Assembly: GCA_964635905.1 (NCBI GenBank)
Contig: CAZWPK010000001.1
Span: 155,863-219,862, forward strand
DNA length: 64,000 nt
Reading direction: 5' to 3'
DNA from: an uncultured Pseudomonadales bacterium
GTDB lineage: Bacteria > Patescibacteriota > Microgenomatia > UBA1400 > UBA12028
A model generated the notes under the pieces. That model saw only the letters and a program-made list of their open reading frames with translations, was not told the origin of the DNA and searched no databases. Position 1 is the first letter of the stretch. Each line of letters starts with the position of its first letter. Positions 7,953 through 41,408 of this stretch are shown one piece after another. The translations under genes were made by a program, and so were the position numbers.

Positions 7953-8690
7953 ATGGCCATAAAACTACTCTCCCTCAATCTTGAAGGAGATAATCACTAC
8001 GAACGTGTTTTCCCATTTCTTTTAACCGAACGACCAGATGTCGTTTGTGTTCAGGAATTCTTTTTGGATGATCTGCCTCTATTTGAGGAGAAACTATCGA
8101 TGCACGGGTACGCGGTTGGCATGTGGACATGCTCACAAGAGAATGATGCGCGCATTTCTAAACGCGGACTAATGGGGGTGGCGATCTTTTCAAAACTCCC
8201 CCTGATTAACCCTGGTCATCAATGGTATGTCGGAGGAGAAGATCGCATTATTGAAATGTTTGTTCCTGAAAACTCTCCAGAAACCGTTAGTCGCGCGCTA
8301 CTGTATGCAGATATTCTAAAAGATGGGCAACTCTTCCGCATTGCCACCACGCACTTTACCTGGTCACCAGGTGGTAGTGTGACAGCGGTGCAGCACGAGC
8401 ATTTAGATCGATTACTTCCTATTTTGAAGTCAATTGAACCAGTTGTGATTGTGGGAGATTTCAATGCTCCACGCGGAAAAGCGATTTTTGAAACACTGGC
8501 ATCGCGGTATATCGATAACATTCCAGCCTCAATCACCACTACCATGGACCAACACTTACACCGTATGCCAGGACTACAATTTGTGGTCGATGTCTTATTC
8601 ACTAGTCCCTCCTACTTAGCATCGGACGTGCAAGTGGTCGACGGGGTATCGGATCACTGTGCAATCGTTGCCACAATTGATGTGCAATAA
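7953..8690 (+). CDS. Endonuclease/exonuclease/phosphatase (EEP, ExoIII/DNase I-like fold) family protein
   Basis: N-terminal 'VVCVQEF' (ExoIII catalytic Glu context), 'ATTHFTW', C-terminal 'SDHCAIV' (ExoIII SDHxPV). Confidence 0.7.
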   Translation: MAIKLLSLNLEGDNHYERVFPFLLTERPDVVCVQEFFLDDLPLFEEKLSMHGYAVGMWTCSQENDARISKRGLMGVAIFSKLPLINPGHQWYVGGEDRIIEMFVPENSPETVSRALLYADILKDGQLFRIATTHFTWSPGGSVTAVQHEHLDRLLPILKSIEPVVIVGDFNAPRGKAIFETLASRYIDNIPASITTTMDQHLHRMPGLQFVVDVLFTSPSYLASDVQVVDGVSDHCAIVATIDVQ

Positions 8691-8698
8691 GAGGGGAT

Positions 8699-9463
8699 AT
8701 GAGCGAAGTCATTACAGTTGCAACTCTTAACACAGAAGGTGGACAATGTGGACCACATAGCGCCAACATTCATCGATTCCTTCGTCAATTTTCGCCTCAA
8801 GTCCTAGGTGTTCAAGAAATTTTTCCTCCAGATACATCGTGGTTACAATCAACCTTGAATTCACAAGATGCTGCCTTTTTACCAAATTTTGAGGTTCGAG
8901 AGCCTCTTTCTGATCGGATTGCAGGTGTTGGATTGTATGGGGTTGCGTTGATTTCTGCATTTCGCCCTCTTGATGTGTCACAACACTATTTTACCGAAGA
9001 GAAATTTCCAAGTAGACCATTTGTCTCGGAGAAGGACTACCCAACTTCACGAGGAGTATTAACTGCAACCTATGCGGTGGGAAACAAAACTCTCCGCGTC
9101 GCAACCACGCACTTTACCTGGAGTCCCGATGGCAGCAATACTCCGGAACAGTGGGATGATTGGCATCGCCTGTCAACAGAGTTACGCAAACAGCAACCAG
9201 ATCTAATTATGGGTGATTTTAATGTCCCGCGCGGAACAAAATTAGGAACTACCATCACACGTACCTATCGGTCGGTGCTTCCCCCAACAATCCAAACAAC
9301 CATGGACCATCAATTGCATAAAGATCCACGCCTTCCACCGCGTGTGGTTGATTACATTTTGATTCCAAAACAGTCCCAAGTTACGATGGTTCCCCAAAGC
9401 GTGCACGTATGCTCAGGAGTATCGGATCACTGTGCTATAGTATGTGATATTAAATATAGATAA
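8699..9463 (+). CDS. EEP family protein, tandem paralog of 7953-8690
   Basis: 'LGVQEIF', 'ATTHFTWSPDGS', 'GDFNVPRG', 'SDHCAIV'. Collinear with upstream paralog (e.g. 'RIATTHFTWSPGGS' vs 'RVATTHFTWSPDGS'). Confidence 0.7.
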   Translation: MSEVITVATLNTEGGQCGPHSANIHRFLRQFSPQVLGVQEIFPPDTSWLQSTLNSQDAAFLPNFEVREPLSDRIAGVGLYGVALISAFRPLDVSQHYFTEEKFPSRPFVSEKDYPTSRGVLTATYAVGNKTLRVATTHFTWSPDGSNTPEQWDDWHRLSTELRKQQPDLIMGDFNVPRGTKLGTTITRTYRSVLPPTIQTTMDHQLHKDPRLPPRVVDYILIPKQSQVTMVPQSVHVCSGVSDHCAIVCDIKYR

Positions 9464-11711: not shown

Positions 11712-12369
11712 ATGCATGACGAAAATCTGAGAAAAGAAATTGAGCGAAAACGCTTAGAAGGAATTAGTGCAGAAGAACTTGCCCAGTTGTACTCTGTGCC
11801 ACGAGGAACGGTGTATCAGTGGGTTAGAAACCTAACCTTATCTTCAGATGCGAGGAGCCGCTTGGAAAGTAATAGTATATTGGGGAGTAAGAAAGAGAGA
11901 GAGACCAGCCTAAAAAATAAACAGTTACAAGAACTCAAGATCAGGGAGACTGTTGTATCTGAGCTTGCCACGATCCAGTTACCCATATCAGTGGGGAAAC
12001 TACTGTGTGCATTTTTGTATTGGGCAGAGGGCGCAAAAGACAGAGTACCTTACTTTTATTAACTCTGATCCAAAAATGATTCATACATTTTTATACCTCT
12101 TTAGAAGGTTCTTTAATCCTGATGAAACGAAGTTTAGAGTAATCGTTCATTTACATCCGTATCACAATCCTACAGAAGTACTTTCTTTTTGGGCCACTAC
12201 TACAAAAATACCGTTATCTCAATTCAACAAACCCTACTTAAAGAAGAATTCTGGGATTAATAAAAAAGACGGATACCTAGGCTGCATAAGTGTCCGATAT
12301 TATGATGCCAAAATTGCCAAAGAGATATTCTGGCTATATACTACTTTTTCGAGCACATTAGGGGCGTAG
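11712..12369 (+). pseudogene. HTH-domain protein split by a +1 frameshift (two overlapping ORFs 11712-12062 and 11953-12369); stop codon overlaps tRNA-Trp 5' end
   Basis: N-terminal HTH 'ISAEELAQLYSVPRGTVYQWVRNL'. Frames switch near an A-run at ~12044-12050 ('gcaaaagacagag'). Second ORF continues 220 aa total. No DDE or recombinase motifs seen. Confidence 0.4.
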
Positions 12370-12430
12370 TTTAGTGGCAGAACAGGAGACTCCAAATCTC
12401 TTAGCGAGGGTCCGATTCCTTCCGCCCCTG
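12360..12430 (+). tRNA. tRNA-Trp (anticodon CCA), no encoded CCA end
   Basis: Acceptor AGGGGCG/CGCCCCT, U8. D-stem GTTT/GAAC. Anticodon stem GGAGA/TCTCT, loop CTCCAAA. T-stem GAGGG/CCTTC (one GU), loop TCCGATT. Discriminator G. Folded by eye. Confidence 0.75.
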
Positions 12431-12538
12431 CAAATATATTTAAGCTTGATTAATCAATGTAATTAATTCAATAAGAACGGTCTTTATCTTCCTTCGAACC
12501 TACTATATTTTGCGGAGTCTTTCGTTATAATACTCCAA

Positions 12539-13783
12539 ATGAATTACGAAAGAATGACTATTGATGAGCTAAAGATATTTTTGCAAGAATCTGTGCCATC
12601 TCAAGAATACTTCCAAAATCCGTATTTTTACTTAGAAAGGATGAGGGAAATAAGCGCAATCCTTTGGATGCCTAATCTAAAGTCTTGGCTGGTGACAGAC
12701 TATGCAACAGTAAATCAAGGTTTAAAAGACAAACGATTCTCAGTAAATAGAAAACAAAAATTCTTCGATAATCTCTCAACAAGTGAGTCTTCAGAACTAC
12801 AACCACTTAGGAACTTTTTTGAGCGATGGTTAATGTTTATAGATCCTCCTTATCATGAAAAACTGAAATCACTGCTGACAAAGTCATTTTCACCTGCATC
12901 GATGCGTCATTTTTCTGAACGCATCAGTAGCTCTGCAGAGAAAGTTTTGATTGATACCCCAAATGGTGAAGTTGATTTTCTCGAATCTTTTGCTATTCCC
13001 TATAGCGTGAATGCGCTGGCAGAAATCCTTGGGATCGATGCTGACGACTATATATCTATTGTTCATTGGACTGAGCAGTTATTGAGTTTCTATGGTGGAA
13101 ATTCGGCAGATATTAGTAAGGGTAGGGAAGCACTGCCTGCATATCATGGGCTAGTTCATTACATGAATAGTGTCATCGATTCAAAAAAAGAGAATGCTGG
13201 AGTAGATATTATCTCTGAACTTGTTCATTTTATGGATGAGGGCGTTATATCAAGAGATGAATTATCAGCTATCGTCGCAAACTTACTTGTAGATGGCCAC
13301 GAGCCTGTAGCTCATACGTTATCGAACGGAGTGTATGAATTGCTCCAAAATCCAGAGCAATTAAGAAAATTAAATGACAATCCAAGTTTAATTCCACAAA
13401 CTGCAGAGGAATTCCTGAGAATAAATCCATATTTCCAATATAGCGCTCGGAGAGCTACTGAAGATTTGGAATTAGGGGACGTGAGTATCAAGGAGAATGA
13501 AAGGGTGATGTTTATGTTGGGAGCTGCTAATAGAGATCCAAAGGTATTCGAGTCTCCAAACGAATTACAATTAGACCGTCAAGAAAATAAGCATCTGTCA
13601 TTTGGACAAGGAATTCATTTTTGTTTGGGTGCGGCACTTGGCAGAGCAACGACCAAGATTGCGCTCGAAAAAATTATTTCGACAAAAAATATTAGTACTA
13701 TCCCAAATCAACGATACGACTGGAAACAGTCCGTAGGCTACAGAGGGCTTCAGAGACTGCCATTGCATTGGGAATCAAAGTAA
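12539..13783 (+). CDS. Cytochrome P450
   Basis: Heme-thiolate loop 'FGQGIHFCLGAALGR', ExxR 'EEFLR', I-helix-like 'LLVDGHEPV'. 414 aa. Very low GC. Confidence 0.85.
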   Translation: MNYERMTIDELKIFLQESVPSQEYFQNPYFYLERMREISAILWMPNLKSWLVTDYATVNQGLKDKRFSVNRKQKFFDNLSTSESSELQPLRNFFERWLMFIDPPYHEKLKSLLTKSFSPASMRHFSERISSSAEKVLIDTPNGEVDFLESFAIPYSVNALAEILGIDADDYISIVHWTEQLLSFYGGNSADISKGREALPAYHGLVHYMNSVIDSKKENAGVDIISELVHFMDEGVISRDELSAIVANLLVDGHEPVAHTLSNGVYELLQNPEQLRKLNDNPSLIPQTAEEFLRINPYFQYSARRATEDLELGDVSIKENERVMFMLGAANRDPKVFESPNELQLDRQENKHLSFGQGIHFCLGAALGRATTKIALEKIISTKNISTIPNQRYDWKQSVGYRGLQRLPLHWESK

Positions 13784-14284
13784 ATCTTTTACAGTATATT
13801 CAATAAGAGCATTTTTCTTTTCATATAAAAAAGAAAAGATTTTTGGTGTATTTGACTGTATTGCATCTAGAAGGAAATGGGGAATATTTTCCACAACTTC
13901 TTTGTTTTTCGGATTCAAAGCCCAATCTACCTCTTTCCACTCCAATATACCTTCTTCTGAAGCAATCAAATCTCTTGTCTCGATGATATCTGGAATTTGA
14001 AATACAAAAAGGTGAGTTCCGCCAATGCGGTCTTCATCCTGTATGTACCATTGTACGATCCCTTTATAGTTTTCATTTTTAACTTCTACATGAAGACCTG
14101 ATTCCTCGAAAAGCTCCTTTTTAATATTCTGATCGGGTGTTTCATCTATTTCAATCTTTCCCCCTAAACCATTCCAGAGGAGAGCATTTGGTGGATAGTT
14201 TCGCAGCAACATAAGCACTCTATTTTTGGAAATACAAAAGCCAAGCGTGTATTTGACGTCAAAATTTACTTTGTTTTCAATCAT
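13775..14284 (-). CDS. NUDIX hydrolase
   Basis: Nudix box 'GGKIEIDETPDQNIKKELFEESGL' (Gx5Ex7REUxEExGU pattern). 169 aa. Convergent and overlapping the P450 3' end. Confidence 0.8.
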   Translation of the reverse strand: MIENKVNFDVKYTLGFCISKNRVLMLLRNYPPNALLWNGLGGKIEIDETPDQNIKKELFEESGLHVEVKNENYKGIVQWYIQDEDRIGGTHLFVFQIPDIIETRDLIASEEGILEWKEVDWALNPKNKEVVENIPHFLLDAIQSNTPKIFSFLYEKKNALIEYTVKDLL

Positions 14285-15531
14285 ATAATTTCTATGGTCT
14301 GACTTCTTTCAGGCCCTACAGAAATAATTCTAACAGGTATCTGGAGTTCATCTTCAATAAACTGCACATAATTCTGGCAATTTTTAGGAAGTTCCGAATA
14401 TTTTCTAGCTGAAGAAATATCAGTACTCCATCCTGGTAGGTCTTTATAGATTGGTCTCACGCTCAATAAGTTAAATATCTGGCCTGGTTGATCATTCTCG
14501 TCGTAGGATGTACAGACACGAATATTTTCAAAGCTGGAGAGCACATCTAATTTTGTGAGTGCTATTTCTTTTACCCCATTCATTTTAATTGCGTATTTCA
14601 ACATAGGGAGATCCAGCCATCCGCAGCGTCTTGGTCGTTTTGATATAGTCCCATACTCATGTCCAACCTCTCTCAATTTTGCTCCAGATTCATTTTCTTG
14701 CTCAGTTGGGAATGGGCCACTACCAACTCGTATCGTATAGGCTCTCACTATTCCCAAAACGTCTATCTCCAAAGGAGGAAGACCTACATTTGGAAATACT
14801 GATGATGCAAGTGTATTGTAAGCAACAGTGAAAGGGTATGTGCCAAAGGAATAATCGAGATAGAACGCTTGAGCAGACTCAAAAAGATACTTGCTTGTCT
14901 GAAAATTTTCAATAATGACTTCTGCGACTGGTCTGAAATATTTACTTAGAAGTTTTCCGTAGTGCAAATATTGTTCGACAATTTCTGATACATTTAGCTT
15001 TGTAGACTTTCCATATACATGTTCTAGTCTTCTCTTCTTTAACTCCCATACTTCATTTATTTTTGAAGCTAATATCTCTTTGTCTAAGAGGTCAACAAGT
15101 CGTATTCCATCTCTGTTAGTTTTGTCTTCATATGAGAATCCGACACCTAATTTTAGTGAACCAACTTTTTGTGAACGATATTCCTCTGACGCTTCATCCA
15201 GAGCAACATGATACGGCATGATTACATGGCATCTCGGATCGATAGAGAGTTTGAAGCTCGAGCTAAATGTTTTAACTTTTTCAATTTCTTTTAATAAAGT
15301 AGAGGGACTTATAGAACAGCCTTGAGCTATGAGCACAGGGTGACCAGAAAGTACTGAAGACGGTAAGTGAGAGAGGGGAAGTTTGTTTTCTCCGACAACA
15401 ACGGTATGTCCAGCATTGTTTGCCCCATTGAAACGAACGCCAGCATCAAAACGATTTCCAAGAAAATCTGCAATTTTCCCTTTACCTTCATCCCCAAATT
15501 GCAATCCGAGGAGGATTAATGAATTTGACAT
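14281..15531 (-). CDS. Adenylosuccinate synthetase homolog (PurA-like), divergent IMP-binding motifs
   Basis: 'GDEGKGKIADFL', 'NNAGHTV', 'TKLDVL', 'RVGSGPFPTE', 'GWLD', C-terminal 'SVGPERSQTI' all PurA-like. Canonical 'GTTGRGIGPAYEDK' is replaced by 'KLGVGFSYEDK'. Confidence 0.75.
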   Translation of the reverse strand: MSNSLILLGLQFGDEGKGKIADFLGNRFDAGVRFNGANNAGHTVVVGENKLPLSHLPSSVLSGHPVLIAQGCSISPSTLLKEIEKVKTFSSSFKLSIDPRCHVIMPYHVALDEASEEYRSQKVGSLKLGVGFSYEDKTNRDGIRLVDLLDKEILASKINEVWELKKRRLEHVYGKSTKLNVSEIVEQYLHYGKLLSKYFRPVAEVIIENFQTSKYLFESAQAFYLDYSFGTYPFTVAYNTLASSVFPNVGLPPLEIDVLGIVRAYTIRVGSGPFPTEQENESGAKLREVGHEYGTISKRPRRCGWLDLPMLKYAIKMNGVKEIALTKLDVLSSFENIRVCTSYDENDQPGQIFNLLSVRPIYKDLPGWSTDISSARKYSELPKNCQNYVQFIEDELQIPVRIISVGPERSQTIEII

Positions 15532-15766
15532 AGTAAGTCTACTTAAATGTTCGGATATAGTACAGTAAATTGATTCCAGATCGAATAGGAAGTTTTAGCT
15601 TGAAGAGTATTTTTTGTTAAATAGGTTCTGACGTCCTCCACTAAGCCCTGCAAAATAGAGATAGATTGATATTGCAATCTAAAAACCAACTTTCTCGAAT
15701 ATCGATCCACAAAGACATACAAAACTGGGTTCACAGTGACTTTGGGAAATGATATATTCTTCTTTT

Positions 15767-16113
15767 ATGTCTAATCTTTATAAAACAGTGGACTCTGTAC
15801 GAATAGAGTTTGAAAAGGGAGCATCTCAGCAAAACTATTAGCCTCTTTATACTCGAGTTATCACAAACTTGAAGACATTGATTCATTTATAGATAGCTCG
15901 GTTAAACTCTTCCCATCACTAAATTGTGGTATCGCAAGTGTGTATCTTAAACATCTTCTGGATCAAGGTGTGGTTATAAATGGTAAATATGATAACAATA
16001 ATCATACTTTTCTTGCGCTATGTGATGGAAAGATTGTCTACATAACTGCAGATCAATTTGGTGGACCAAAGATATATATAGGTCCGATGAATTTTGCTTG
16101 GAAGTTAAGGTAG
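15767..16113 (+). pseudogene. Frameshifted copy of the 114-aa protein family represented intact at 26945-27289
   Basis: Translation 'MSNLYKTVDSVRIEFEKG...' then -1 shift '...LFPSLNCGIASVYLKHLL..NHTFLAL.DGKIVYITADQFGGPKIYIGPMN' aligns with 26945-27289 product ('LFPTLNCGIASVYLEYVL..HHTFLFIDGITVVDITADQYAGPVIYIGPLN'). Confidence 0.55.
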
Positions 16114-16150
16114 GTTCGAACATCTTCCACGCACCCCAGTAGAATGTCCA
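16113..16150 (+). repeat. Degenerate copy of tRNA-Trp 3' end (T-arm/acceptor-like), repeat A
   Basis: 'GGTTCGAACATCTTCCACGCACCCCAGTAGAATG' begins at the stop codon of the pseudogene. Aligns to tRNA-Trp 3' half 'GGGTCCGATTCCTTCCGCCCCTGCA' and to repeats B-E. Confidence 0.45.
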
Positions 16151-16163
16151 TTGTCATGAAATA

Positions 16164-16778
16164 TTAATCTACGGTAGGAGATTGATGGTTCAAAAACCGG
16201 TCAATTTTATTTTCATGCAAAACAATAAATTCTTCATTGACAATATTGACCTCAGGATCTCTAAGTTCATCAATTAGTCCTACAGCTTGTAACTTTGTGA
16301 GAATCACCCCACTTCGAGTATGACCGTTCTTCCATTGTTCTTGATAAAAATGAATTGCATTAATCGCAGTTTCTCTATCCAATCTCATTCCTGAGAGTAT
16401 TTTTCTGACGGCTTCCCATTCATGGTAGCTATCATCTTCTTTAAATAAACCTAAATTCGCATCAATACTTTTTCGTACATCGCGCATTTCCATTGGGTTC
16501 AGGGGTATGAGAGTTGCCTCAGATGGACTATCGATCAGGCCAAGTAATTCAAGTTTAAGTAAAACCGTGCCTGCTGCTCCCGAACCATTTTTTCGATCTC
16601 TTACTAAAATGTCGATCATCTTTTGAGCTGAAAGATGATCGCCAATCTCTAGGTTGAAAAGGATCTTGTTGATTTCTTGCCAATCGACTGATTCAACATA
16701 CGCCTCACTCCACTCTCTTTTGTTAGAAAAACCTAATCGTTGCCAATCAGGAAGCTGTTGGTGTTGATCACCGTCCAT
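16164..16778 (-). CDS. Hypothetical protein with internal duplicated segment
   Basis: 204 aa. Two similar segments 'GTVLLKLELLGLIDSP' and 'GVILTKLQAVGLIDEL'. No known motif. Confidence 0.4.
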   Translation of the reverse strand: MDGDQHQQLPDWQRLGFSNKREWSEAYVESVDWQEINKILFNLEIGDHLSAQKMIDILVRDRKNGSGAAGTVLLKLELLGLIDSPSEATLIPLNPMEMRDVRKSIDANLGLFKEDDSYHEWEAVRKILSGMRLDRETAINAIHFYQEQWKNGHTRSGVILTKLQAVGLIDELRDPEVNIVNEEFIVLHENKIDRFLNHQSPTVD

Positions 16779-16949
16779 ATGTGATCAGATTAGCACGAAA
16801 TATTTGTGAGAAATAGGCTCCAACATCCATTTGTTTCCACGATATGCAAATGAAGACGCTCACTCCTATATGGGGTATAAGCGAAAGACGACTGGGGAGC
16901 AGTGTTTACGTTATGCCGAAAATATGCAATTGGCTCTAGAACGGAAATT

Positions 16950-16990
16950 GGTTCGAACATCCTCCACGAGTCCCTGCAAGGACATTTTTC
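16950..16990 (+). repeat. Degenerate copy of tRNA-Trp 3' end, repeat B
   Basis: 'GGTTCGAACATCCTCCACGAGTCCCTGCAAGGACAT' shares 'TCCCTGCAA' with the tRNA-Trp end 'CCCCTGCAAA'. Lies 9 nt after the stop of a 32-aa ORF remnant. Confidence 0.45.
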
Positions 16991-17027
16991 TCGAGTAAAA
17001 ACTTTTGACAGACGCGAGGAATCGAAC

Positions 17028-17771
17028 CTAAAACTCTTTTAGGTAACAGATTTTCTTTTCTCCATAAAATCGAAGATTCTTTGCTTTCCCAGCAAAACGT
17101 ATTTCTACAGCTGCAAAGTGTTCTTCAGAATGAAAGCTAAAAGTAAATCCTTTTGAAAAAGCAAGATGAAGAGTGTCTCTTTCTACTGCAAATGACTGGA
17201 ATGAGAGTAGTTTTTCAGCAAGAGAATCAAGAATAGAGTCAATTTCTTTTTTGGAATTTGATGAGCTTTCTATTAATGCTTTACCTTCTTCGTCTTTCAG
17301 ACTCCACTTCGCATAGGTACAAAATACTGAATCATTTGAAAACCGAGCTTGAAGGATGGTTCCATAAACGCGGAATATTTTTGTGATTGCTTGACCTTCA
17401 AGTGCTTGGAAATCTAGAGAGAGCTGGTTTTTCGTGATAGGAACCTTTTGTGCCAGTTGCTTCAACAAGTGGTATCTATCGAAACTATGACAAGCTTTTG
17501 GATTCAGAATCCCTCTATTTCCAACAGGTGACTTTTCAATCCTATCCAATGCATATGCATGGAGTTCGGTTGGGAATGAATAGAGTTCAAACTCTCCCTT
17601 ATCTGTTTCGATAAAATGGCGCCAAACTTTCCGTCCAATATAGTCAAAATAGGTAACGTAGGTGATCGTACCTACTCCGAAGTGGTCAAGGATACCTTGT
17701 AGCACTGGCAAGCTATAAATACTCTTCATGCAACTAATTATATCTTGGAATGGATAAATGGGCTCGATCAT
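17028..17771 (-). CDS. Hypothetical protein
   Basis: 247-aa ORF, AT-rich. No motif recognised. Confidence 0.4.
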   Translation of the reverse strand: MIEPIYPFQDIISCMKSIYSLPVLQGILDHFGVGTITYVTYFDYIGRKVWRHFIETDKGEFELYSFPTELHAYALDRIEKSPVGNRGILNPKACHSFDRYHLLKQLAQKVPITKNQLSLDFQALEGQAITKIFRVYGTILQARFSNDSVFCTYAKWSLKDEEGKALIESSSNSKKEIDSILDSLAEKLLSFQSFAVERDTLHLAFSKGFTFSFHSEEHFAAVEIRFAGKAKNLRFYGEKKICYLKEF

Positions 17772-17934
17772 CTCACGCCTTTGGCGGGCAAGCCTGCAAT
17801 GTTTTAGTTGTTCCCCAGGTGTTTAGAGAAAACCATCTCTAAGGTGGATTAGAATAAAATCTGCAACGGAATTTGATCACGTCGGTTACGTTCGAATTGT
17901 TTCAAGACAAGACCGTCTGTTGTATTGACAAAAC

Positions 17935-18246
17935 ATGTACAAAACCTATCATTCTTGTATGGCTTTAAAGCTTAGTTTTAATGAGGAAAAGAATCAAATA
18001 TTAAAAGCTACTCGCGGAATCTGTTTTGATGATGTGGTTGAAGCGATCAAGAAAAAGAAGCTTTTAGCTACTATTGCTCATCCAAGCACCAAACATTCAA
18101 ATCAGTGGATCTATATCATTGAGATTGAAGGCTATGCCTACGCAGTTCCGTACGTAAAAAACGCAAAAAAAAATGAAATATTTCTTAAAAGTGTCTATGC
18201 AAGTCGATTCATGACAAAAAAGTATATAAAAAGGAGAAGCAAATGA
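17935..18246 (+). CDS. BrnT-family (DUF497) type II toxin
   Basis: ~100-aa protein, 'FNEEKNQILKATRGICFDDVVEAI...IYIIEIEGYAYAVPYV', consistent with BrnT ribonuclease toxin. ATGA overlap with downstream BrnA-like gene. Confidence 0.6.
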   Translation: MYKTYHSCMALKLSFNEEKNQILKATRGICFDDVVEAIKKKKLLATIAHPSTKHSNQWIYIIEIEGYAYAVPYVKNAKKNEIFLKSVYASRFMTKKYIKRRSK

Positions 18247-18548
18247 AAAGAATCCAAGATCCTTTTATCAATCTGGTATTGGACGAAGAAGAGAAAGCAC
18301 TAGAAGAAACCTTTGAGCGCGGAGATTTTGAGGAAGATGCTCATCTTGAAGATACAAAGAAAATGCTGGAAGAAGCTGCTACACGCTATAGTCAGCTACA
18401 TACCTCAAAACCAGTTACCATTCGTATCAAGCAGCTAGATTTAATAAAAGTGAAATCAAGAGCGAAAGCCAAGAATATTCCCTATCAAACATTGATTGGT
18501 TCAGTTATCCATCAATATGCAGAGGGGAATGAAAAATTAAGTTTATAA
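18243..18548 (+). CDS. BrnA-family antitoxin (C-terminal RHH-like)
   Basis: C-terminal 'VTIRIKQLDLIKVKSRAKAKNIPYQTLIGSVIHQYAEG' matches BrnA hallmark (..ITIRLD.D....K..A...G.GYQT.IN..LREY). Confidence 0.65.
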   Translation: MKRIQDPFINLVLDEEEKALEETFERGDFEEDAHLEDTKKMLEEAATRYSQLHTSKPVTIRIKQLDLIKVKSRAKAKNIPYQTLIGSVIHQYAEGNEKLSL

Positions 18549-18550
18549 TA

Positions 18551-18593
18551 GGTTCAAACATTCTCCACGTGTCTTCTCCCAAGAAGTGCACAT
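18551..18593 (+). repeat. Degenerate copy of tRNA-Trp 3' end, repeat C
   Basis: 'GGTTCAAACATTCTCCACGTGTCTTCTCCCAAGAAGTGCACAT' directly after the BrnA stop codon. Confidence 0.45.
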
Positions 18594-18692
18594 CGACAAT
18601 ACGACTCTCCTCAACTAAAACTGCTATCAGAGCAATTGAGAGTATGCATAATAGTAGTTGCAATACTAATCCGCATAATGTATACTCAGTTC

Positions 18693-19868
18693 ATGATTAA
18701 CAGAGCAATTTCTCACAAAATCAAAGAGCTTCATCGAAAATACCCGGTGGTTTCTATCGTGGGCCCAAGACAATCTGGGAAAACTAGCTTGGCACAATAT
18801 CTTTTCCCTAACCATACTTACCATAATTTAGAAAATCTGGATATCTTGAGTCTGGCGAAGAGTGATCCAAAGGGTTTTCTTAAAATAGGCTCAGGAGAGC
18901 GTTTTGTTATTGATGAAATTCAAAAATTTCCAGATTTACTTTCTTATATTCAAGTTGAAGTTGATAGTCAAAAAAAAGATGGACAATTTGTCATCACTGG
19001 ATCACAGAATTTTTCAATTGCAGAAGGCATTTCACAATCATTGGCCGGGAGAGTTGCAAATTTTGTTTTATTACCTCTAACTCATGAAGAAATTACTACC
19101 AGTGAATATTCAAATCCTGTCGCAAACACAATCCAACAAATCATACTAAATGGTTTTTATCCTAGACCTCTGGTAAAAAATATCCAACCAGAGGATTTTT
19201 ATCGTGATTACTTAAGTACATACATCGAGCGAGATGTTCGGCAAATAAAAAACATCGGTGATCTGAGCACTTTTCAGAAATTCTTACAACTTTTAGCAGG
19301 GAGGGTAGGGCAACTTGTTAACTTTTCTTCCCTAGCCAATGATGTGGGGGTGAACTATAAAACGATCGAGTCTTGGTTAAGCATTTTGGAAGCCAGTTAT
19401 GTTGTTTACACGTTGCAGCCCTATTATGAGAATTATGGTAAAAGAGTCATTAAAAGTCCTAAAGTGTATTTTTATGATGTTGGTTTATTATGTCACCTCT
19501 TAAAAATTAATTCTGTTCATGAGCTTGAATCACATTTTGCATATGGTCAAATCTTTGAAAATTTTGTCATTACAGAAATGATTAAAACCAATTTCAATTT
19601 AAGAAAGAATGAGCAAGTCTACTTTTGGAGAGACAGTAATAGTAACGAGATTGATGCAGTGATTGATTCAGGCGAAAATAAACATGGAGTTGAGATCAAA
19701 GCTGGGAGTACTTTTAATATTGACATGCTTAAAGGACTATCGCAATGGCAATCACTAAATCCATCTAAAAATACTCCCACTCATCTGGTCTATAACGGAG
19801 AGCAGGAGCAAAAGGTACGAGATCATCAAGTTGTGAATTGGAAAACATTTCTAAGCAGTTTGAATTAA
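18693..19868 (+). CDS. AAA-family ATPase with DUF4143-type C-terminal domain (COG1373-like)
   Basis: Walker A 'GPRQSGKTSL'. Walker B-like 'RFVIDEIQKFPDL'. Overall architecture typical of the ATPase/DUF4143 family. Start moved to ATG 18693 ('MINRAISHKIKELHRKYPVVSIVGPRQSGKT'). Confidence 0.75.
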   Translation: MINRAISHKIKELHRKYPVVSIVGPRQSGKTSLAQYLFPNHTYHNLENLDILSLAKSDPKGFLKIGSGERFVIDEIQKFPDLLSYIQVEVDSQKKDGQFVITGSQNFSIAEGISQSLAGRVANFVLLPLTHEEITTSEYSNPVANTIQQIILNGFYPRPLVKNIQPEDFYRDYLSTYIERDVRQIKNIGDLSTFQKFLQLLAGRVGQLVNFSSLANDVGVNYKTIESWLSILEASYVVYTLQPYYENYGKRVIKSPKVYFYDVGLLCHLLKINSVHELESHFAYGQIFENFVITEMIKTNFNLRKNEQVYFWRDSNSNEIDAVIDSGENKHGVEIKAGSTFNIDMLKGLSQWQSLNPSKNTPTHLVYNGEQEQKVRDHQVVNWKTFLSSLN

Positions 19869-19870
19869 AG

Positions 19871-19910
19871 GGGTTGAATATCTTCTATTAACCCCTGCAA
19901 ACATAGGTTG
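19871..19910 (+). repeat. Degenerate copy of tRNA-Trp 3' end, repeat D (best match)
   Basis: 'GGGGTTGAATATCTTCTATTAACCCCTGCAAACAT' vs tRNA-Trp 'GAGGGTCCGATTCCTTCCGCCCCTGCAAATAT'. Begins 3 nt after the AAA ATPase stop. Confidence 0.5.
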
Positions 19911-20002
19911 AATCAAAATAATCGATTTTTCTATCAGTCATGCAACTCGCGCACCTTGCTCAAATTTCTTCTGATACTTGATCTGTATAGTATGCTTTAA
20001 CC

Positions 20003-20785
20003 ATGAGTAAAGATAAAATTCTTTCTCCACTTTTTTCAGAAAAGAATGTTAAAAAGAAAACACGTTTCAACTTTTTAGGCATTGGTATCGGCAGAGATAG
20101 GGATAAAAACGGCATTGATAACCAGCTAGACTCCGCGCGTTTTAGAGAATTGATGGGGGAATGGTATAAAGAGGAAAAAACGATACAAAGAGATCGTGAT
20201 GCGGGAAGAAAAGTCTCAAGGGAAGATGTTCAAAGAATTGACCGTCTCCGACTAAGAATTATCACTGAATGTATTCAGATTTTGGAGAAATGTAACAGTC
20301 CTAGATCCTACAGGAATTTATTAGAGACAGCAGCGTGCCTTTATTATGAGGCTGCAAGATTCCGTAGTTATGAGCTTATCGAAATTGCTCAGAAATACGA
20401 GCAAATAGCGGTACACCAACTTAAATTGCAAAAACCAACAGAAAATGTGAGCAATTTATTTAAAGGCTTGCCGAGAGCAAGGGACTTAAATCATGAGCTT
20501 AGTGCGATTGTAACTGGTGACGCTCGCTTTGACGAGGCTAAAATTAAAAGGATCTCAGGAGAGCTTATTGCACTTTACTATGCCTATGATGAGAACAAGT
20601 TAGCTCCCTATGACATGGGGAGAATTAAGTTTGACTATAGTACGGAACATATCGAGTTTAACGTCTTAAGTCTAGGAGGATGGATTATTGCTCAGCTAGT
20701 ATTAGAAGCACATAGTTTAGGTATCACGGATTTTTCCTCTTATATTCTCTTAAGGAACAGGATAGAGGACTTTCCGAAACGGTGA
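20003..20785 (+). CDS. Hypothetical protein
   Basis: 260-aa ORF. No motif recognised. Confidence 0.4.
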   Translation: MSKDKILSPLFSEKNVKKKTRFNFLGIGIGRDRDKNGIDNQLDSARFRELMGEWYKEEKTIQRDRDAGRKVSREDVQRIDRLRLRIITECIQILEKCNSPRSYRNLLETAACLYYEAARFRSYELIEIAQKYEQIAVHQLKLQKPTENVSNLFKGLPRARDLNHELSAIVTGDARFDEAKIKRISGELIALYYAYDENKLAPYDMGRIKFDYSTEHIEFNVLSLGGWIIAQLVLEAHSLGITDFSSYILLRNRIEDFPKR

Positions 20786-20867: not shown

Positions 20868-21545
20868 CCTGACCATCTAGTGCGGATACAGTCTCCAGTT
20901 ACTATTGCAGATTAAGAAGCAGAGAAGAGTATTCGCTCAATTATTTCCACTGCATTCCCAGACCATCGAATTCTAGGAGAGGAAGAGGGGACTAACACCT
21001 CGGATTTTTCGTATTTATGGATCATTGATCCAATTGATGCAACAAAGAACTATTTACGACACATCCCACTTTTTGCTACCCAGCTTGCGCTGATGAAGGA
21101 TGGAGAAGTGATTCTTGGAGTATCGAACTCTCCTGAAATTGGCGAACTGCTGTATGCGGAGAAAGGACAGGGAACCTATTGCAATGACACAAAAATCTCG
21201 GTCTCACAGAAGTCATCGATTCAAGAAGCATATCTAAGCTATCGTAGTGTCGGATATTTTCAGAGAAGCGGTCGCATGGAACAGTTTTTGAAGCTAGAAA
21301 ACGACACGCAGGCTCATCGTGGCTTTGGAGATTTTTGGGGATACCATCTATTGGCCCAAGGGAAAGTAGACATTATGCTGGAAGGGAATACGAAGCTGTG
21401 GGACGTTGCGGCAGTATCCATTCTTGTCAGCGAGGCAGGGGGAACGGTCACAGATTTTGAAGGGAACCCCATCAACGAATCCACAACATCCATTATTGCC
21501 ACAAATGGACACCTTCATACTGCAGTGGCAGGATACTTTTTCTAA
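20868..21545 (+). pseudogene. Inositol monophosphatase (SuhB/IMPase) family pseudogene: 5'-truncated with in-frame TAA
   Basis: In-frame translation '..PVTIAD*EAEKSIRSIISTAFPDHRILGEEEG...WIIDPIDATKNYL' matches IMPase motifs (DLVTEAD.AAE..I...YP.H.ILGEE; WIIDPIDGT.NF). TAA at 20913-20915. First ~40 codons absent. The intact-looking part is ORF 21093-21545. Confidence 0.6.
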
Positions 21546-36495: not shown

Positions 36496-37161
36496 TTGAA
36501 GACAGATCGCGTCTTTAAGTTCGCAATCGTACTGATTCTAGCGCTGATTGCGTTAGCATCGGTGCTGATGTTCGTTGTTTCAGAGGTCGGTGCTCAAGGG
36601 CACCCGATCATCACAATTTTGCGGACAGAGCCCCGTGATCCAGGGGCTAGGGTTTGGTTCAATGTCCAGAACATGCCCGCCGGTTGGCGGGTCTTGTTCG
36701 ACGACGGGCGCGCCGCCTACCCGTCGAGCGTTGAAACCAGCTCCGAAGTTTGGAGCTGGTGGTTTTACCCAGGGCAGTATCAACTGTCCTTCGGAGTTCC
36801 GGGTAACACCAGGACAATGTGTCTGGTGGTGGGCCCAGACCACCAGGTAAGCTTTTGTCCGGTAGTTTCCGCAGCGACGTTGACGCCCATCCCTGCCCAA
36901 GCTCCTGCGGAAGGTCTCGTGGGGTTCAACGCCCCTCCTCCGGATCAAAACTGGGTTCAGGTTTTGGCTCCCAGGCTCAGAATTCGGGAATGCCCAGCGC
37001 TCTCTTGCCAGGTTGTCGCGCGTGCAACCTGGCACTCGTACCTTATTCAACTGGCCGCTGAGCCGGTCCTCGCGGACGGCTACACCTGGGTCCCCGTCTC
37101 TTGGGGACCCGGGCTGCAAGGTTGGACCGCGGCGGAGTACACGACGTACGCCGCCGGCTAG
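36496..37161 (+). CDS. Membrane-anchored protein with C-terminal SH3b-like domain; body encoded by a ~65% GC segment
   Basis: N-terminal TM 'FAIVLILALIALASVLMFVV'. C-terminal 'YLIQLAAEPVLADGYTWVPVSWGPGLQGWTAAEY' SH3b-like. GC3-rich codons from ~36590. Confidence 0.45.
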   Translation: MKTDRVFKFAIVLILALIALASVLMFVVSEVGAQGHPIITILRTEPRDPGARVWFNVQNMPAGWRVLFDDGRAAYPSSVETSSEVWSWWFYPGQYQLSFGVPGNTRTMCLVVGPDHQVSFCPVVSAATLTPIPAQAPAEGLVGFNAPPPDQNWVQVLAPRLRIRECPALSCQVVARATWHSYLIQLAAEPVLADGYTWVPVSWGPGLQGWTAAEYTTYAAG

Positions 37162-37287
37162 AATCACATGGAAGAGGATCTCCCGTGCCCCGAAAGGGGT
37201 GCGGGAGAATCCGAGAAATTTATCGTAGTTGTTTAACGTAATGAAGACAAACTTGTCACCCATGCATCATAAGAAATTTAAAACCAT

Positions 37288-39257: not shown

Positions 39258-39665
39258 CGCATTTGCAATATTGCTAATGCTATAACAGTAATCATTGCAT
39301 CCTTCTGATATACTATCGCAAGGAAGTGACCATAATCACAAAAAGAATGACGTATTGAATTGGCGTGTGGCCCTAGGTAATTTCTTGGGGAGACGAGGAG
39401 AGGGGCGAATCTTTGAATGAGATTCGCAATCGGACTGAATAGTTGGAAAACCAACGATTCAAGTATCTGCGGGAACCCTCCGGTGCATGAACATCGTTAC
39501 GACGGTCAGTTAAACCTCTTTTGTAAAAAAGAGAACAAAGCTGTCTTCCGGATTCATCTTCTTTTTGATTCGCTTGCTTCTTTCAATAGATCCACTGTTT
39601 AACGTGGCGGTATAACGCTGCAGTTAACTTTGGTGACTTTTTATAGCGCCCTAAGGAGCTAAACT

Positions 39666-41408
39666 ATGTGTGGAATTTTTTGTACCGTGGGAACCAACCC
39701 GACAGCCGCCCAACGCACGCTTGAAGGATTAAAAACTCTAGAATATCGTGGGTATGACAGTTGGGGAGTAGCATTTGCAGACCTTCGTTCTCAAGTGGAA
39801 GTGTATAAACAAGTTGGCAAGATCGGAAAAGCGACGCTTCCAGCGATTCCGGATAACACCATCGCGATTGGACATACCCGTTGGGCAACCCACGGGGGAG
39901 TGACGGTAGAAAATGCCCATCCCCATACCGATTGTTCTGGACGCTTTGCAATCGTGCATAACGGCATTGTGGAAAACTACCAGGAACTCAAAAACGAACT
40001 AACAGCAGTAGGGCACACGTTTACTTCCACGACGGACTCTGAGACCATCGCCCATCTAGTCGAAGAACTTTCCAAGACCGACGCCATCGATCAAGCGGTG
40101 CTGCACACCGCCAAACGCTTACGGGGACTAAACGCCATCATTGTCTTGGATGCAAAAACTCAACGGCTGTATGCAGTTTGCCAAGGATCCCCCTTAGTCG
40201 TTGCCAAGAATGATCAAGGATATCAATTGGCCAGTGATGCGGTCGCCTTCACCGATCCATTAACCCAAGTCCTCTACCTGTCCCCAGGATACATGGTGGA
40301 ACTTTCGCTAGATTTCTGTCGACTCAGTACCATTGACACGAACTCCGAAGAACCCTTAGCCTGGCAACCACTTCCTAAGCTCAATGCCAGTACCCAGTTA
40401 GGCCCACATCCGCATTACCTGATCAAAGAGATCCATGAGCAGCCAGGACTGGTTCGTACCCTAGCCGGAAGTGAAAGTACTCCGATTGCATTCTCTCCTA
40501 GTGGTCGAGTCTTCCTAATCGGTTGTGGAACGGCCTATCATGCCGCATTGCTGGCAACCTACTGGTTTGCCCAAACAGGAAAACTTGCGTCGGCATATAG
40601 CGGCAGTGAGTTCTTTTCGATTCGTCATGTCGTAAGCTCGAAAGATACTGTGATCTTTTATTCCCAGAGTGGAGAGACGATTGATGTGGTTGAACATGCA
40701 CGGTATTTGGCAGAGAAGAAGATTTCCACAATCGCCATCACCAACAACGCCCATTCCTCGCTGGCACGCATCGTACACACCGTCATACCCTTGGACGCCG
40801 GAACTGAGCAATCGGTCTTGGCAACCAAGTCATTCACGCTAATGCTGGCGCATTCCTTGCGATTACTGCACCCCATGGAAACACTCAAAAGTGACTTCCT
40901 GGCTGCAGCCAACGCGATGGACGCGCTCGTTTCGGTTCCAGCCTTGGAACAAACAATCACCCCGGTTGCGAATCTGATCAAGTCGACCCAGCATTTATTT
41001 GTCATCGGACGTGGTGTCTGGTATCCCTTGGCTCTCGAAGCTGCCTTAAAAATAAAAGAGGTGACCTACATCCATGCGGAAGGATTTGCGGGAGGGGAAC
41101 TCAAACATGGAGCAATCGCCCTCATTTCAACGGGAACCCCATGTTTGGTCTTTGTCCCGAACGATGACTCTAGAGAGATCATTCTCTCCAATGCAATGGA
41201 ACTGAAGGCCCGCGGAGCAGTGTTAATTGGAATATCGTCCACCAATGAAGAAATGTTTGATTTCCACATTCCGGTTGCCTGGACCAACCAAGCGGCGCCA
41301 CTGACCGCCATTGTGCCGATGCAGCTGTTGGCTTATCAACTCGCAATTCTCTTGGGACGCGATCCGGATAAACCACGTAACTTAGCAAAATCTGTCACTG
41401 TACGCTAG
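39666..41408 (+). CDS. glmS: Glutamine--fructose-6-phosphate aminotransferase (isomerizing)
   Basis: N-terminal nucleophile 'MCGIFCTVG', GATase-2 'RGYDSWGVA', 'HTRWATHG', two SIS domains, C-terminal 'GELKHGAIALI' and 'LAYQLA..LGRDPDKPRNLAKSVTV'. Confidence 0.9.
   Translation: MCGIFCTVGTNPTAAQRTLEGLKTLEYRGYDSWGVAFADLRSQVEVYKQVGKIGKATLPAIPDNTIAIGHTRWATHGGVTVENAHPHTDCSGRFAIVHNGIVENYQELKNELTAVGHTFTSTTDSETIAHLVEELSKTDAIDQAVLHTAKRLRGLNAIIVLDAKTQRLYAVCQGSPLVVAKNDQGYQLASDAVAFTDPLTQVLYLSPGYMVELSLDFCRLSTIDTNSEEPLAWQPLPKLNASTQLGPHPHYLIKEIHEQPGLVRTLAGSESTPIAFSPSGRVFLIGCGTAYHAALLATYWFAQTGKLASAYSGSEFFSIRHVVSSKDTVIFYSQSGETIDVVEHARYLAEKKISTIAITNNAHSSLARIVHTVIPLDAGTEQSVLATKSFTLMLAHSLRLLHPMETLKSDFLAAANAMDALVSVPALEQTITPVANLIKSTQHLFVIGRGVWYPLALEAALKIKEVTYIHAEGFAGGELKHGAIALISTGTPCLVFVPNDDSREIILSNAMELKARGAVLIGISSTNEEMFDFHIPVAWTNQAAPLTAIVPMQLLAYQLAILLGRDPDKPRNLAKSVTVR

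Follow-up and report, generated by a model that had tools for sequence, protein, structure and literature searches.

The question raised by this locus is why a cytochrome P450 gene should stand, with no redox partner nearby, between a tRNA gene and two genes of nucleotide metabolism in a 64,000-nucleotide stretch of contig CAZWPK010000001.1 (positions 155,863 to 219,862; hereafter the window, to which all coordinates of the stretch refer), which comes from a bacterium that is placed, with moderate confidence, close to the Candidate Phyla Radiation (CPR; Patescibacteria, Microgenomates-like). An earlier note, made from the letters alone, had read the gene as a horizontal acquisition. Comparison of related loci gave another answer: this P450 is not a stray import, its family being found in several bacterial phyla next to genes for purine nucleotides or for purine transport, and its substrate is therefore probably a purine. 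With moderate confidence, the P450 is read here as purine-directed and as acting with its neighbours, in a small accessory cassette, on non-canonical purines. The genes at issue are these.

12360 to 12431, plus strand: tRNA-Trp (CCA), called by ARAGORN and by Rfam RF00005 at 61.5 bits.
12539 to 13783, plus strand: cytochrome P450, member of the 'DGHEP' family, an uninterrupted open reading frame (ORF) of 414 aa.
13775 to 14284, minus strand: NUDIX hydrolase of 169 aa, Pfam PF00293 at 1.8e-8.
14281 to 15531, minus strand: adenylosuccinate synthetase (AdSS) PurA of the long canonical type, 416 aa, Pfam PF00709 at 1e-138.

As the earlier note had described, the P450 is the next gene after tRNA-Trp, which lies 107 bp upstream of its start, and it converges on the NUDIX/PurA pair, the 3′ ends of P450 and NUDIX overlapping by 9 bp. 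The stop codon of PurA overlaps the start of NUDIX by 4 bp on the same strand, and these two genes therefore form an operon. The P450 itself is intact, under constraint and genuine. It scored 84.5 bits against Pfam PF00067 (cut-off 22.8) and matched 401 P450 sequences of the PDB, with CftA (8jnp, 1.7e-58) and BioI (3ejb, 2e-55) as the best, and its ratio of nonsynonymous to synonymous substitution rates (dN/dS) against the ortholog in the closest related locus, L001, was 0.11.

The order of a P450 gene converging on NUDIX and AdSS genes was found in the AT-rich relatives L001 (81% P450 identity), L002/3 (61%), L008 (43%) and L006 (37%). In L004/5 (48%) the P450 converges on PurA, followed by two NUDIX genes and, after these, a carbamoyltransferase, and in L009 (39%) a short-AdSS fragment, NUDIX and P450 follow each other on one strand with only 8 bp between the last two. 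The genes adjoining P450 in L001, L002/3, L006, L008 and L009 are NUDIX orthologs. The outer flanks differ in every one of the AT-rich loci, and nothing is common to them beyond the P450, NUDIX and AdSS genes. Between the window and L001 the three genes are collinear, with a synonymous divergence (dS) of 0.89-1.15 and a dN/dS of 0.09-0.17, and the identity ranks of P450, NUDIX and AdSS agree across the relatives. Since the neighbours are kept across homologs and are collinear with L001, the unit is P450, NUDIX and AdSS, not a lone P450. The earlier note had taken the flanks as incidental and had named their conservation beside homologous P450s as what would speak against its reading; NUDIX and AdSS do adjoin the P450 at identities from 81% to 37%, and that part of the note falls.

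Distant members of the family, with 21-30% P450 identity, were recovered by a scan of representative genomes, and they carry the same association with other genes. In a gammaproteobacterial metagenome-assembled genome (MAG; L011, P450 identity 27-30%) a 253-aa ORF and the P450 converge on genes for a short AdSS, guanylate kinase and Ham1, and in a Parvibaculum MAG (L015) a 255-aa ORF, P450 and NUDIX converge on a short AdSS and a kinase. Most loci thus have NUDIX as the pyrophosphatase beside the P450, and L011 has Ham1. Two kinds of AdSS likewise occur: the window, L001, L002/3, L004/5 and L008 have the long PurA type, and L006, L009, L011 and L015 have a short archaeal-like type, 27% identical to the long-type PurA of the window. 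Two non-orthologous AdSS types and two unrelated pyrophosphatases in one neighbourhood mean that the association survives gene replacement and crosses phyla. The short AdSS of L006 is nearest in the PDB to archaeal PurA (2d7u, 4e-67), with PurZ (7odx, 4e-26) more distant, and it scored 235 bits against the PurZ model NF038379, the cut-off of which is 300. A PurB gene is adjacent in L006 and L017. The 253- and 255-aa proteins lie immediately upstream of the P450 and overlap its start (L011 9207-9968 and L015 9036-9803, both plus strand); they are 36% identical, share YFGDxxDYxKY at the N-terminus as well as a motif FLDPDNG, and had no match in Pfam, NCBIfam, PHROGs or the PDB.

In the Firmicutes the partners are a HAD hydrolase and a purine-transport gene. 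On the Staphylococcus hominis plasmid NZ_CP040733 (L102, 653-3848), HAD-IIB, a P450 of the family and an NCS2 nucleobase permease share one strand, and on the Bacillus toyonensis plasmid NZ_CP081874 (L101, 4030-9881) and in B. pseudomycoides (L012) the P450 is followed by a co-directional NCS2 permease, with a divergent HAD gene upstream. The Staphylococcus cassette adjoins lantibiotic-dehydratase-like genes and the L101 Bacillus cassette lies near a YqcI/YcgG-family gene. A HAD hydrolase also follows the family P450 in Klebsiella, Kalamiella and Volucribacter. On the Klebsiella michiganensis plasmid NZ_CP048111 (L100, 7019-8212) the P450, which has IS256 and IS5 transposases on its flanks, is annotated in two pieces, a 'hypothetical protein' and a 'cytochrome P450', and is probably a frameshifted pseudogene.

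The frequency of such neighbours was compared with that beside ordinary P450s. When metagenome contigs were scanned with the alignment of the family, the generic pattern of the heme loop dominated the result, and the 80 loci kept were all canonical P450s of at most 34% identity; these canonical loci were reused as a control set of 81 loci and 594 kb. None of the 81 had a tblastn match to the family NUDIX, Ham1, guanylate kinase or either AdSS type, against 8 of 13 family contexts (Fisher p about 1e-8). The three plasmid loci, one proteobacterial and two from Firmicutes, are not counted among the 13 contexts; when these 13 were collapsed to lineages of less than 50% P450 identity, 7 of 11 had such neighbours.

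The family is set apart from other P450s by its I-helix. The motifs read from the translation are the following.

13280 to 13306, plus strand: I-helix motif N248-L-L-V-D252-G-H-E255-P256.
13409 to 13420, plus strand: ExxR motif of the K-helix, E291-F-L-R294, kept in 10 of 12 family members.
13601 to 13630, plus strand: heme-binding loop FGQGIHFCLG with the thiolate Cys362; G356, G358, H360, C362 and G364 are invariant.

The last two are the signatures on which the earlier note had called a P450, and the Pfam and PDB matches agree with it; it had not remarked on NLLVDGHEP. This stretch aligns to the AGHETT of BioI and of the outgroups P0010, P0011, P0020 and P0021, the canonical form being AGxETT. 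Glu-Pro (E255-P256) thus stands where Asp/Glu-Thr, as acid-alcohol pair, would be, and instead of the I-helix of a typical monooxygenase D252-G-H-E255-P256 is found, with Pro for Thr in all 12 family members. N248, D252 and P256 are invariant in the 12 and absent from the outgroups; F93, M99, F299 and G400 are also invariant in the 12 and Y301 is found in 10, none of them common to the outgroups. These family-specific residues are spread over the B-C loop and the I-helix, the part that follows the K-helix, and the hairpin at the C-terminus, and the family as a whole is described by NxxxDGHEP together with conserved FYxxWLMYxD, PFQYxAR and WxxSxGYR stretches. The latter fall in what we take, from their place in the fold, to be the usual substrate-contacting regions of P450s, which suggests that the members probably share a similar polar substrate. 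An AlphaFold model (mean pLDDT, the predicted local distance difference test, 82.4) has the P450 fold, with the modelled helix broken at residues 251-253; the best fold matches were CYP109, BioI and CYP107 at a template modelling (TM) score of about 0.75, and the PDB fold search gave only these generic neighbours and no hint of substrate.

The DGHEP family is rare. When 1.84 billion cluster representatives were searched with a profile, about 18 motif-bearing proteins came out on top among the best 150 matches, as about 18 clusters at 50% identity, followed by AGxETT-type P450s; more distant members exist besides. A motif-pattern scan of representative genomes from 185,579 species found no close relative of the window P450. 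A phage origin is unsupported, as neither the scan of viral contigs nor tblastn of 50,697 phage records found a family member. Classification by hidden Markov models, which the earlier note had proposed, put the P450 below the curated cut-off of every specific NCBIfam P450 model.

The claim that no redox partner is present held for the whole window: no ferredoxin, flavodoxin or ferredoxin reductase was found by a six-frame scan for Cys motifs or by a Pfam search of 59 of 81 ORFs of at least 110 aa plus a BrnT-like ORF of 103 aa, the 22 ORFs outside the Pfam search mostly overlapping a longer searched gene. The use of this as a sign of import fared less well. No redox partner gene was found in any of the 15 family contexts (the window and 14 related loci), and bacterial P450s often rely on redox partners encoded elsewhere, so that the missing neighbour weighs little. 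Since Pro takes the place of the alcohol in the acid-alcohol pair, oxygen is probably activated in a non-canonical way; H2O2 might drive the reaction or the substrate might assist it, a dedicated redox partner then being needed less, and by analogy with the P450s described below this could account for the 15 contexts that encode none.

Several known P450 groups were considered in placing the family. The class I P450s of the CYP107/CYP109 group (BioI CYP107H1, CYP109B4, PikC and EryF) are alike in fold and length (28-33% identity, TM about 0.75) and share with the window P450 the Cys loop, ExxR and the ANRDP motif. The window P450 differs from them in DGHEP against AGHETT and in its own motifs in the likely substrate-contacting regions, and its identity lies below the 40% that marks a CYP family. 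No biotin, polyketide or steroid genes lie near the P450, and bio genes are found neither in the window nor in the related loci. Identity with BioI as a pimeloyl-ACP synthase was accordingly rejected (about 30% to 3ejb, no bio genes), and the names 'pimeloyl-ACP synthase' and 'PksS', under which JGI lists some of the family and some nearby homologs, find no support. The CYP152 peroxygenases (OleT and P450BSbeta) have Arg-Pro at the acid-alcohol position (PMC5377825), and CYP255 enzymes (SyoA and GcoA) lack the pair and use H2O2 (PMC11842817). The window P450 resembles CYP152 in the Pro at the P256 position, resembles both in its disrupted pair, and has no redox partner nearby; it differs in that its pair is Glu-Pro, not Arg-Pro or Gln-Glu. 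Membership of CYP152 was rejected, the NCBIfam CypC model giving 21 bits against a cut-off of 600 and the residue before Pro being Glu. The best NCBIfam model was that of the subfamily associated with cyclodipeptide synthases (TIGR04538, 199.5 bits, cut-off 500). The nucleobase-handling P450s of cyclodipeptide pathways (PtmB, GutD and GymB) bind purine bases (PMC11573659, PMC9401060), and in PtmB adenine is both substrate and catalyst, activating H2O2 (PMC11573659). A cyclodipeptide-synthase-associated P450 was nevertheless rejected on that score and on the lack of a cyclodipeptide synthase among the annotated neighbours in the family contexts examined; unlike PtmB, GutD and GymB, the window P450 has nucleotide enzymes as its partners.

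Of these partners, the NUDIX is MTH1/MutT-like in its N-terminal half, with PDB matches to MutT (3fk9, 1e-8) and MTH1 (about 1e-7). Like MTH1/NUDT1 it has YTL, WNGxGGK and an intact Nudix box (within 14093-14176, WNGLGGKIEIDETPDQNIKKELFEESGL), and it is 40% identical over 57 residues, WNGxGGK included, to a human MTH1 sequence entered by hand. The Arg of the REUxEE consensus is Lys in the NUDIX of the window and of L001 and Arg in the other orthologs. MTH1 recognises the base through Asp119 and Asp120 in its C-terminal half; this half of the window NUDIX gave no significant alignment to MTH1, and the orthologs conserve NxEVVENIPxFL instead. All NCBIfam MutT scores were far under their cut-offs. 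PurA passes the NCBIfam purA equivalogs NF002223 (446 bits, cut-off 402) and TIGR00184 (395.7, cut-off 395.55), carries the GDEGKGK P-loop and the NAGHT motif and is best matched in the PDB by 4m0g (7.5e-93). Its nearest named homologs are from Candidatus Gottesmanbacteria (47-50% identity), and it is of the CPR type. PADLOC assigned no defence system to the three genes: the P450 reached only 0.0022 to PD-Lambda-5_B over 44 residues, PurA had no match, and the 6e-8 of NUDIX to the candidate PDC-S07 is a generic NUDIX match.

Put together, the cassette would work as follows. The P450 would hydroxylate a purine base, nucleoside or nucleotide, or dealkylate it oxidatively; NUDIX, or Ham1 elsewhere, would return the matching non-canonical purine nucleoside triphosphate (NTP) to the monophosphate and so keep it away from nucleic acids; and AdSS with PurB would re-aminate a 6-oxopurine monophosphate into the adenine pool. 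Pairings of this kind are known: in the phage Z-base cluster (PurZ with MazZ/DatZ) and in ToyG/ToyF/ToyI and ForA/ForB a phosphatase or pyrophosphatase is encoded next to a member of the AdSS family by which a 6-oxopurine monophosphate is aminated. The cassette likewise pairs an NTP pyrophosphatase with AdSS, to which L011 adds guanylate kinase. It is unlike the Z-base cluster in that the AdSS of the window is a canonical PurA, and a PurZ-like role was rejected at 100.5 bits against the NF038379 cut-off of 300. We know of no P450 in the Z-base or in the toyocamycin and formycin AdSS clusters.

A number of points weigh against a purine-directed cassette. The evidence for function comes entirely from gene neighbourhood, from which we infer the substrate class and the chemistry. 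Most of the supporting loci are short metagenomic contigs, and the synteny of the AT-rich loci may partly be simple inheritance. In the window the P450 converges on the NUDIX-PurA operon and is therefore not co-transcribed with it, and PurA looks like an ordinary housekeeping enzyme that a salvage-dependent genome could keep for that alone. Two family members, L007 and L099, are in contexts resembling biosynthetic clusters, with no purine genes adjoining the P450, and the nearest P450s of solved structure have acyl-ACP, macrolides, steroids or peptides as substrates. The change of Thr to Pro is no proof of peroxide use, and a CPR-like organism would need a supply of heme together with O2 or H2O2. 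Only tentatively, then, can it be suggested that the DGHEP P450s may be an unrecognised purine-oxidising class, possibly peroxide-driven and independent of redox partners, that anchors a portable pathway for non-canonical purines (P450, NTP pyrophosphatase or phosphatase, and AdSS or permease) even in CPR-like bacteria not expected to make heme, and that salvages or produces a modified purine absent from current maps.

The same genes could instead make a modified purine nucleotide or nucleoside, as an antimetabolite or unusual base, with AdSS aminating a 6-oxopurine analogue, the pyrophosphatase or phosphatase setting the phosphorylation or protecting the producer, and the P450 tailoring the base. 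The proteobacterial MAGs lend this some support, having a short AdSS by the P450, nucleotide kinases and two conserved proteins without assigned function; their carriers would presumably also have a canonical long-type purA, which would make the short AdSS an extra copy. AdSS paralogs with phosphatases or pyrophosphatases occur in the toyocamycin, formycin and phage Z-base pathways, which favours production as well, as do the biosynthetic-looking surroundings of L007 and L099. The window itself does not fit, its AdSS passing the purA cut-offs and remaining at 100 bits to PurZ, and the cassette of the window and of the CPR-like loci holds no scaffold-forming enzyme, though L004/5 has its carbamoyltransferase. 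NCS2 permeases are mostly importers, and their presence in the Firmicutes cassettes fits uptake better than production. On balance production is considered unlikely.

A shared stress response was also weighed, in which the P450 would consume or detoxify an oxidant or a nitrosating agent, such as H2O2 or nitric oxide (NO), and its neighbours would repair the purine pool, deaminated or oxidised NTPs being hydrolysed and inosine monophosphate (IMP) re-aminated. It agrees with the non-canonical I-helix and with MTH1-like NUDIX and Ham1 being house-cleaning enzymes for oxidised or deaminated purine NTPs. It also draws on proteins of 128 aa and of the MGMT DNA-binding family that adjoin the cassette in L006 (12868-13254, minus strand) and L009 (1905-2291, plus strand). 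These are 56% identical to each other and have PWWR in place of the active-site PCHR; judged from this sequence they are alkyltransferase-like (ATL) proteins, which would bind O6-alkylguanine without repair, and their place beside the cassette also fits the theme of damaged purines. What a stress response leaves unexplained are the cassettes of HAD, P450 and NCS2 permease and the conservation of the likely substrate-contacting stretches across the family, and no similarity to P450nor was seen beyond the common fold. It is accordingly held improbable.

Whether the P450 arrived by horizontal transfer was approached through base composition, and here one further feature is needed.

12539 to 20785, no strand: block of eight consecutive genes with a low GC content at third codon positions (GC3), 0.29-0.36 against about 0.44-0.48 elsewhere.

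The eight genes are P450, NUDIX, PurA, two ORFs without a family match, a BrnT-like toxin (17935-18246, plus strand), a DUF4143/AAA_14 ATPase (18636-19868, plus strand) and a 260-aa ORF, and the ATPase matches the PADLOC defence candidate PDC-S01 at 1.9e-101. The GC3 of the block is 0.317 ± 0.019 against 0.436 ± 0.073 in the other 49 ORFs (Mann-Whitney p = 8e-5), which bears out the AT-rich segment described in the earlier note. Such a block, deviant in composition and carrying a toxin and a candidate defence ATPase, agrees with an origin as acquired DNA. The composition shift begins at tRNA-Trp, but the other marks of a tRNA-linked integrative island were not found: no integrase family occurs among the ORFs from 11.7 to 24.4 kb, and the window has no second copy of at least 13 nt of 12341-12540, as an att-type repeat of the tRNA 3′ end would be. 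Nor was this tRNA found upstream of the P450 in L001-L009. The AT-rich relatives of the cassette have a GC content of 0.31-0.41, as in the block, against 0.45-0.50 in the window backbone. The most likely course is that P450, NUDIX and AdSS were gained together as a three-gene unit from an AT-rich relative. Because the PurA of the unit is of the CPR type with its nearest named homologs in Gottesmanbacteria, the donor, if any, would probably have been a related AT-rich lineage and not a distant P450-rich phylum. Of the horizontal acquisition claimed for the P450, the deviant block and the lack of a close relative in 185,579 species thus speak for transfer, and what fails is acquisition of the P450 alone, the unit being three genes. 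The suggestion that it belongs to a small-molecule modification module is plausible, the treatment of NUDIX and PurA as unrelated neighbours is not, as they recur beside the P450s of relatives.

At the edge of the block a gene with a helix-turn-helix (HTH) domain is split into overlapping ORFs (11712-12062 and 11953-12369, plus strand), its 3′ end entering the first bases of tRNA-Trp, and looks frameshifted or decaying. A 150-aa ORF (21093-21545, plus strand) aligns with the inositol monophosphatase profile, which has 271 positions, over 113-263 only and is probably a truncated remnant. For the window ORFs of 204 and 247 aa upstream of PurA there was no match in any related locus.

That a lone P450 was acquired to act on an unrelated small molecule, with NUDIX and PurA incidental, would agree with the block adjoining a tRNA gene, the convergent orientation, the lack of a close homolog among the species scanned and the hydrophobic substrates of the closest solved relatives, but it is very unlikely and already largely refuted by the conserved neighbourhood, as the neighbours recur, rearranged, down to 37% identity and at 21-30% with non-orthologous AdSS, Ham1 and in other phyla, none of the 81 controls shows them, and NUDIX and PurA match the P450 in low GC3 and in divergence from L001.

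A search of the literature on the cassette, on P450s in CPR bacteria and on nucleobase-handling P450s found no paper describing the cassette or a CPR-conserved P450. If a purine-directed cassette is the right reading, a substrate class would be assigned to an unstudied P450 family and an oxidative step would be added to bacterial purine salvage or sanitation, in schemes of which P450s do not normally appear. Carriers of the family are CPR-like bacteria dependent on scavenged nucleotides, and it is also found on plasmids of Staphylococcus, Bacillus and Klebsiella, and its function may bear on symbiont nutrition, on tolerance of purine antimetabolites and on the search for P450s free of redox partners.

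Many ORFs of the window have no Pfam family, and the CPR-like label rests on this together with the nearest named homologs of PurA and GlmS. One such ORF (36496-37161, plus strand) has a GC content of 0.595 and a GC3 of 0.66 against a background of about 0.45, had no Pfam match and is overlapped by an antisense ORF of 227 aa (36580-37263). A glmS ribozyme, worth noting in a CPR-like genome, was found at 39351-39557 on the plus strand (Rfam RF00234, 45.3 bits, gathering score 37) directly upstream of glmS (39666-41408), the product of which has its nearest named homolog in Candidatus Woesebacteria at 48% identity. Two tandem paralogs of the endonuclease/exonuclease/phosphatase family lie on the plus strand at 7953-8690 and 8699-9463.

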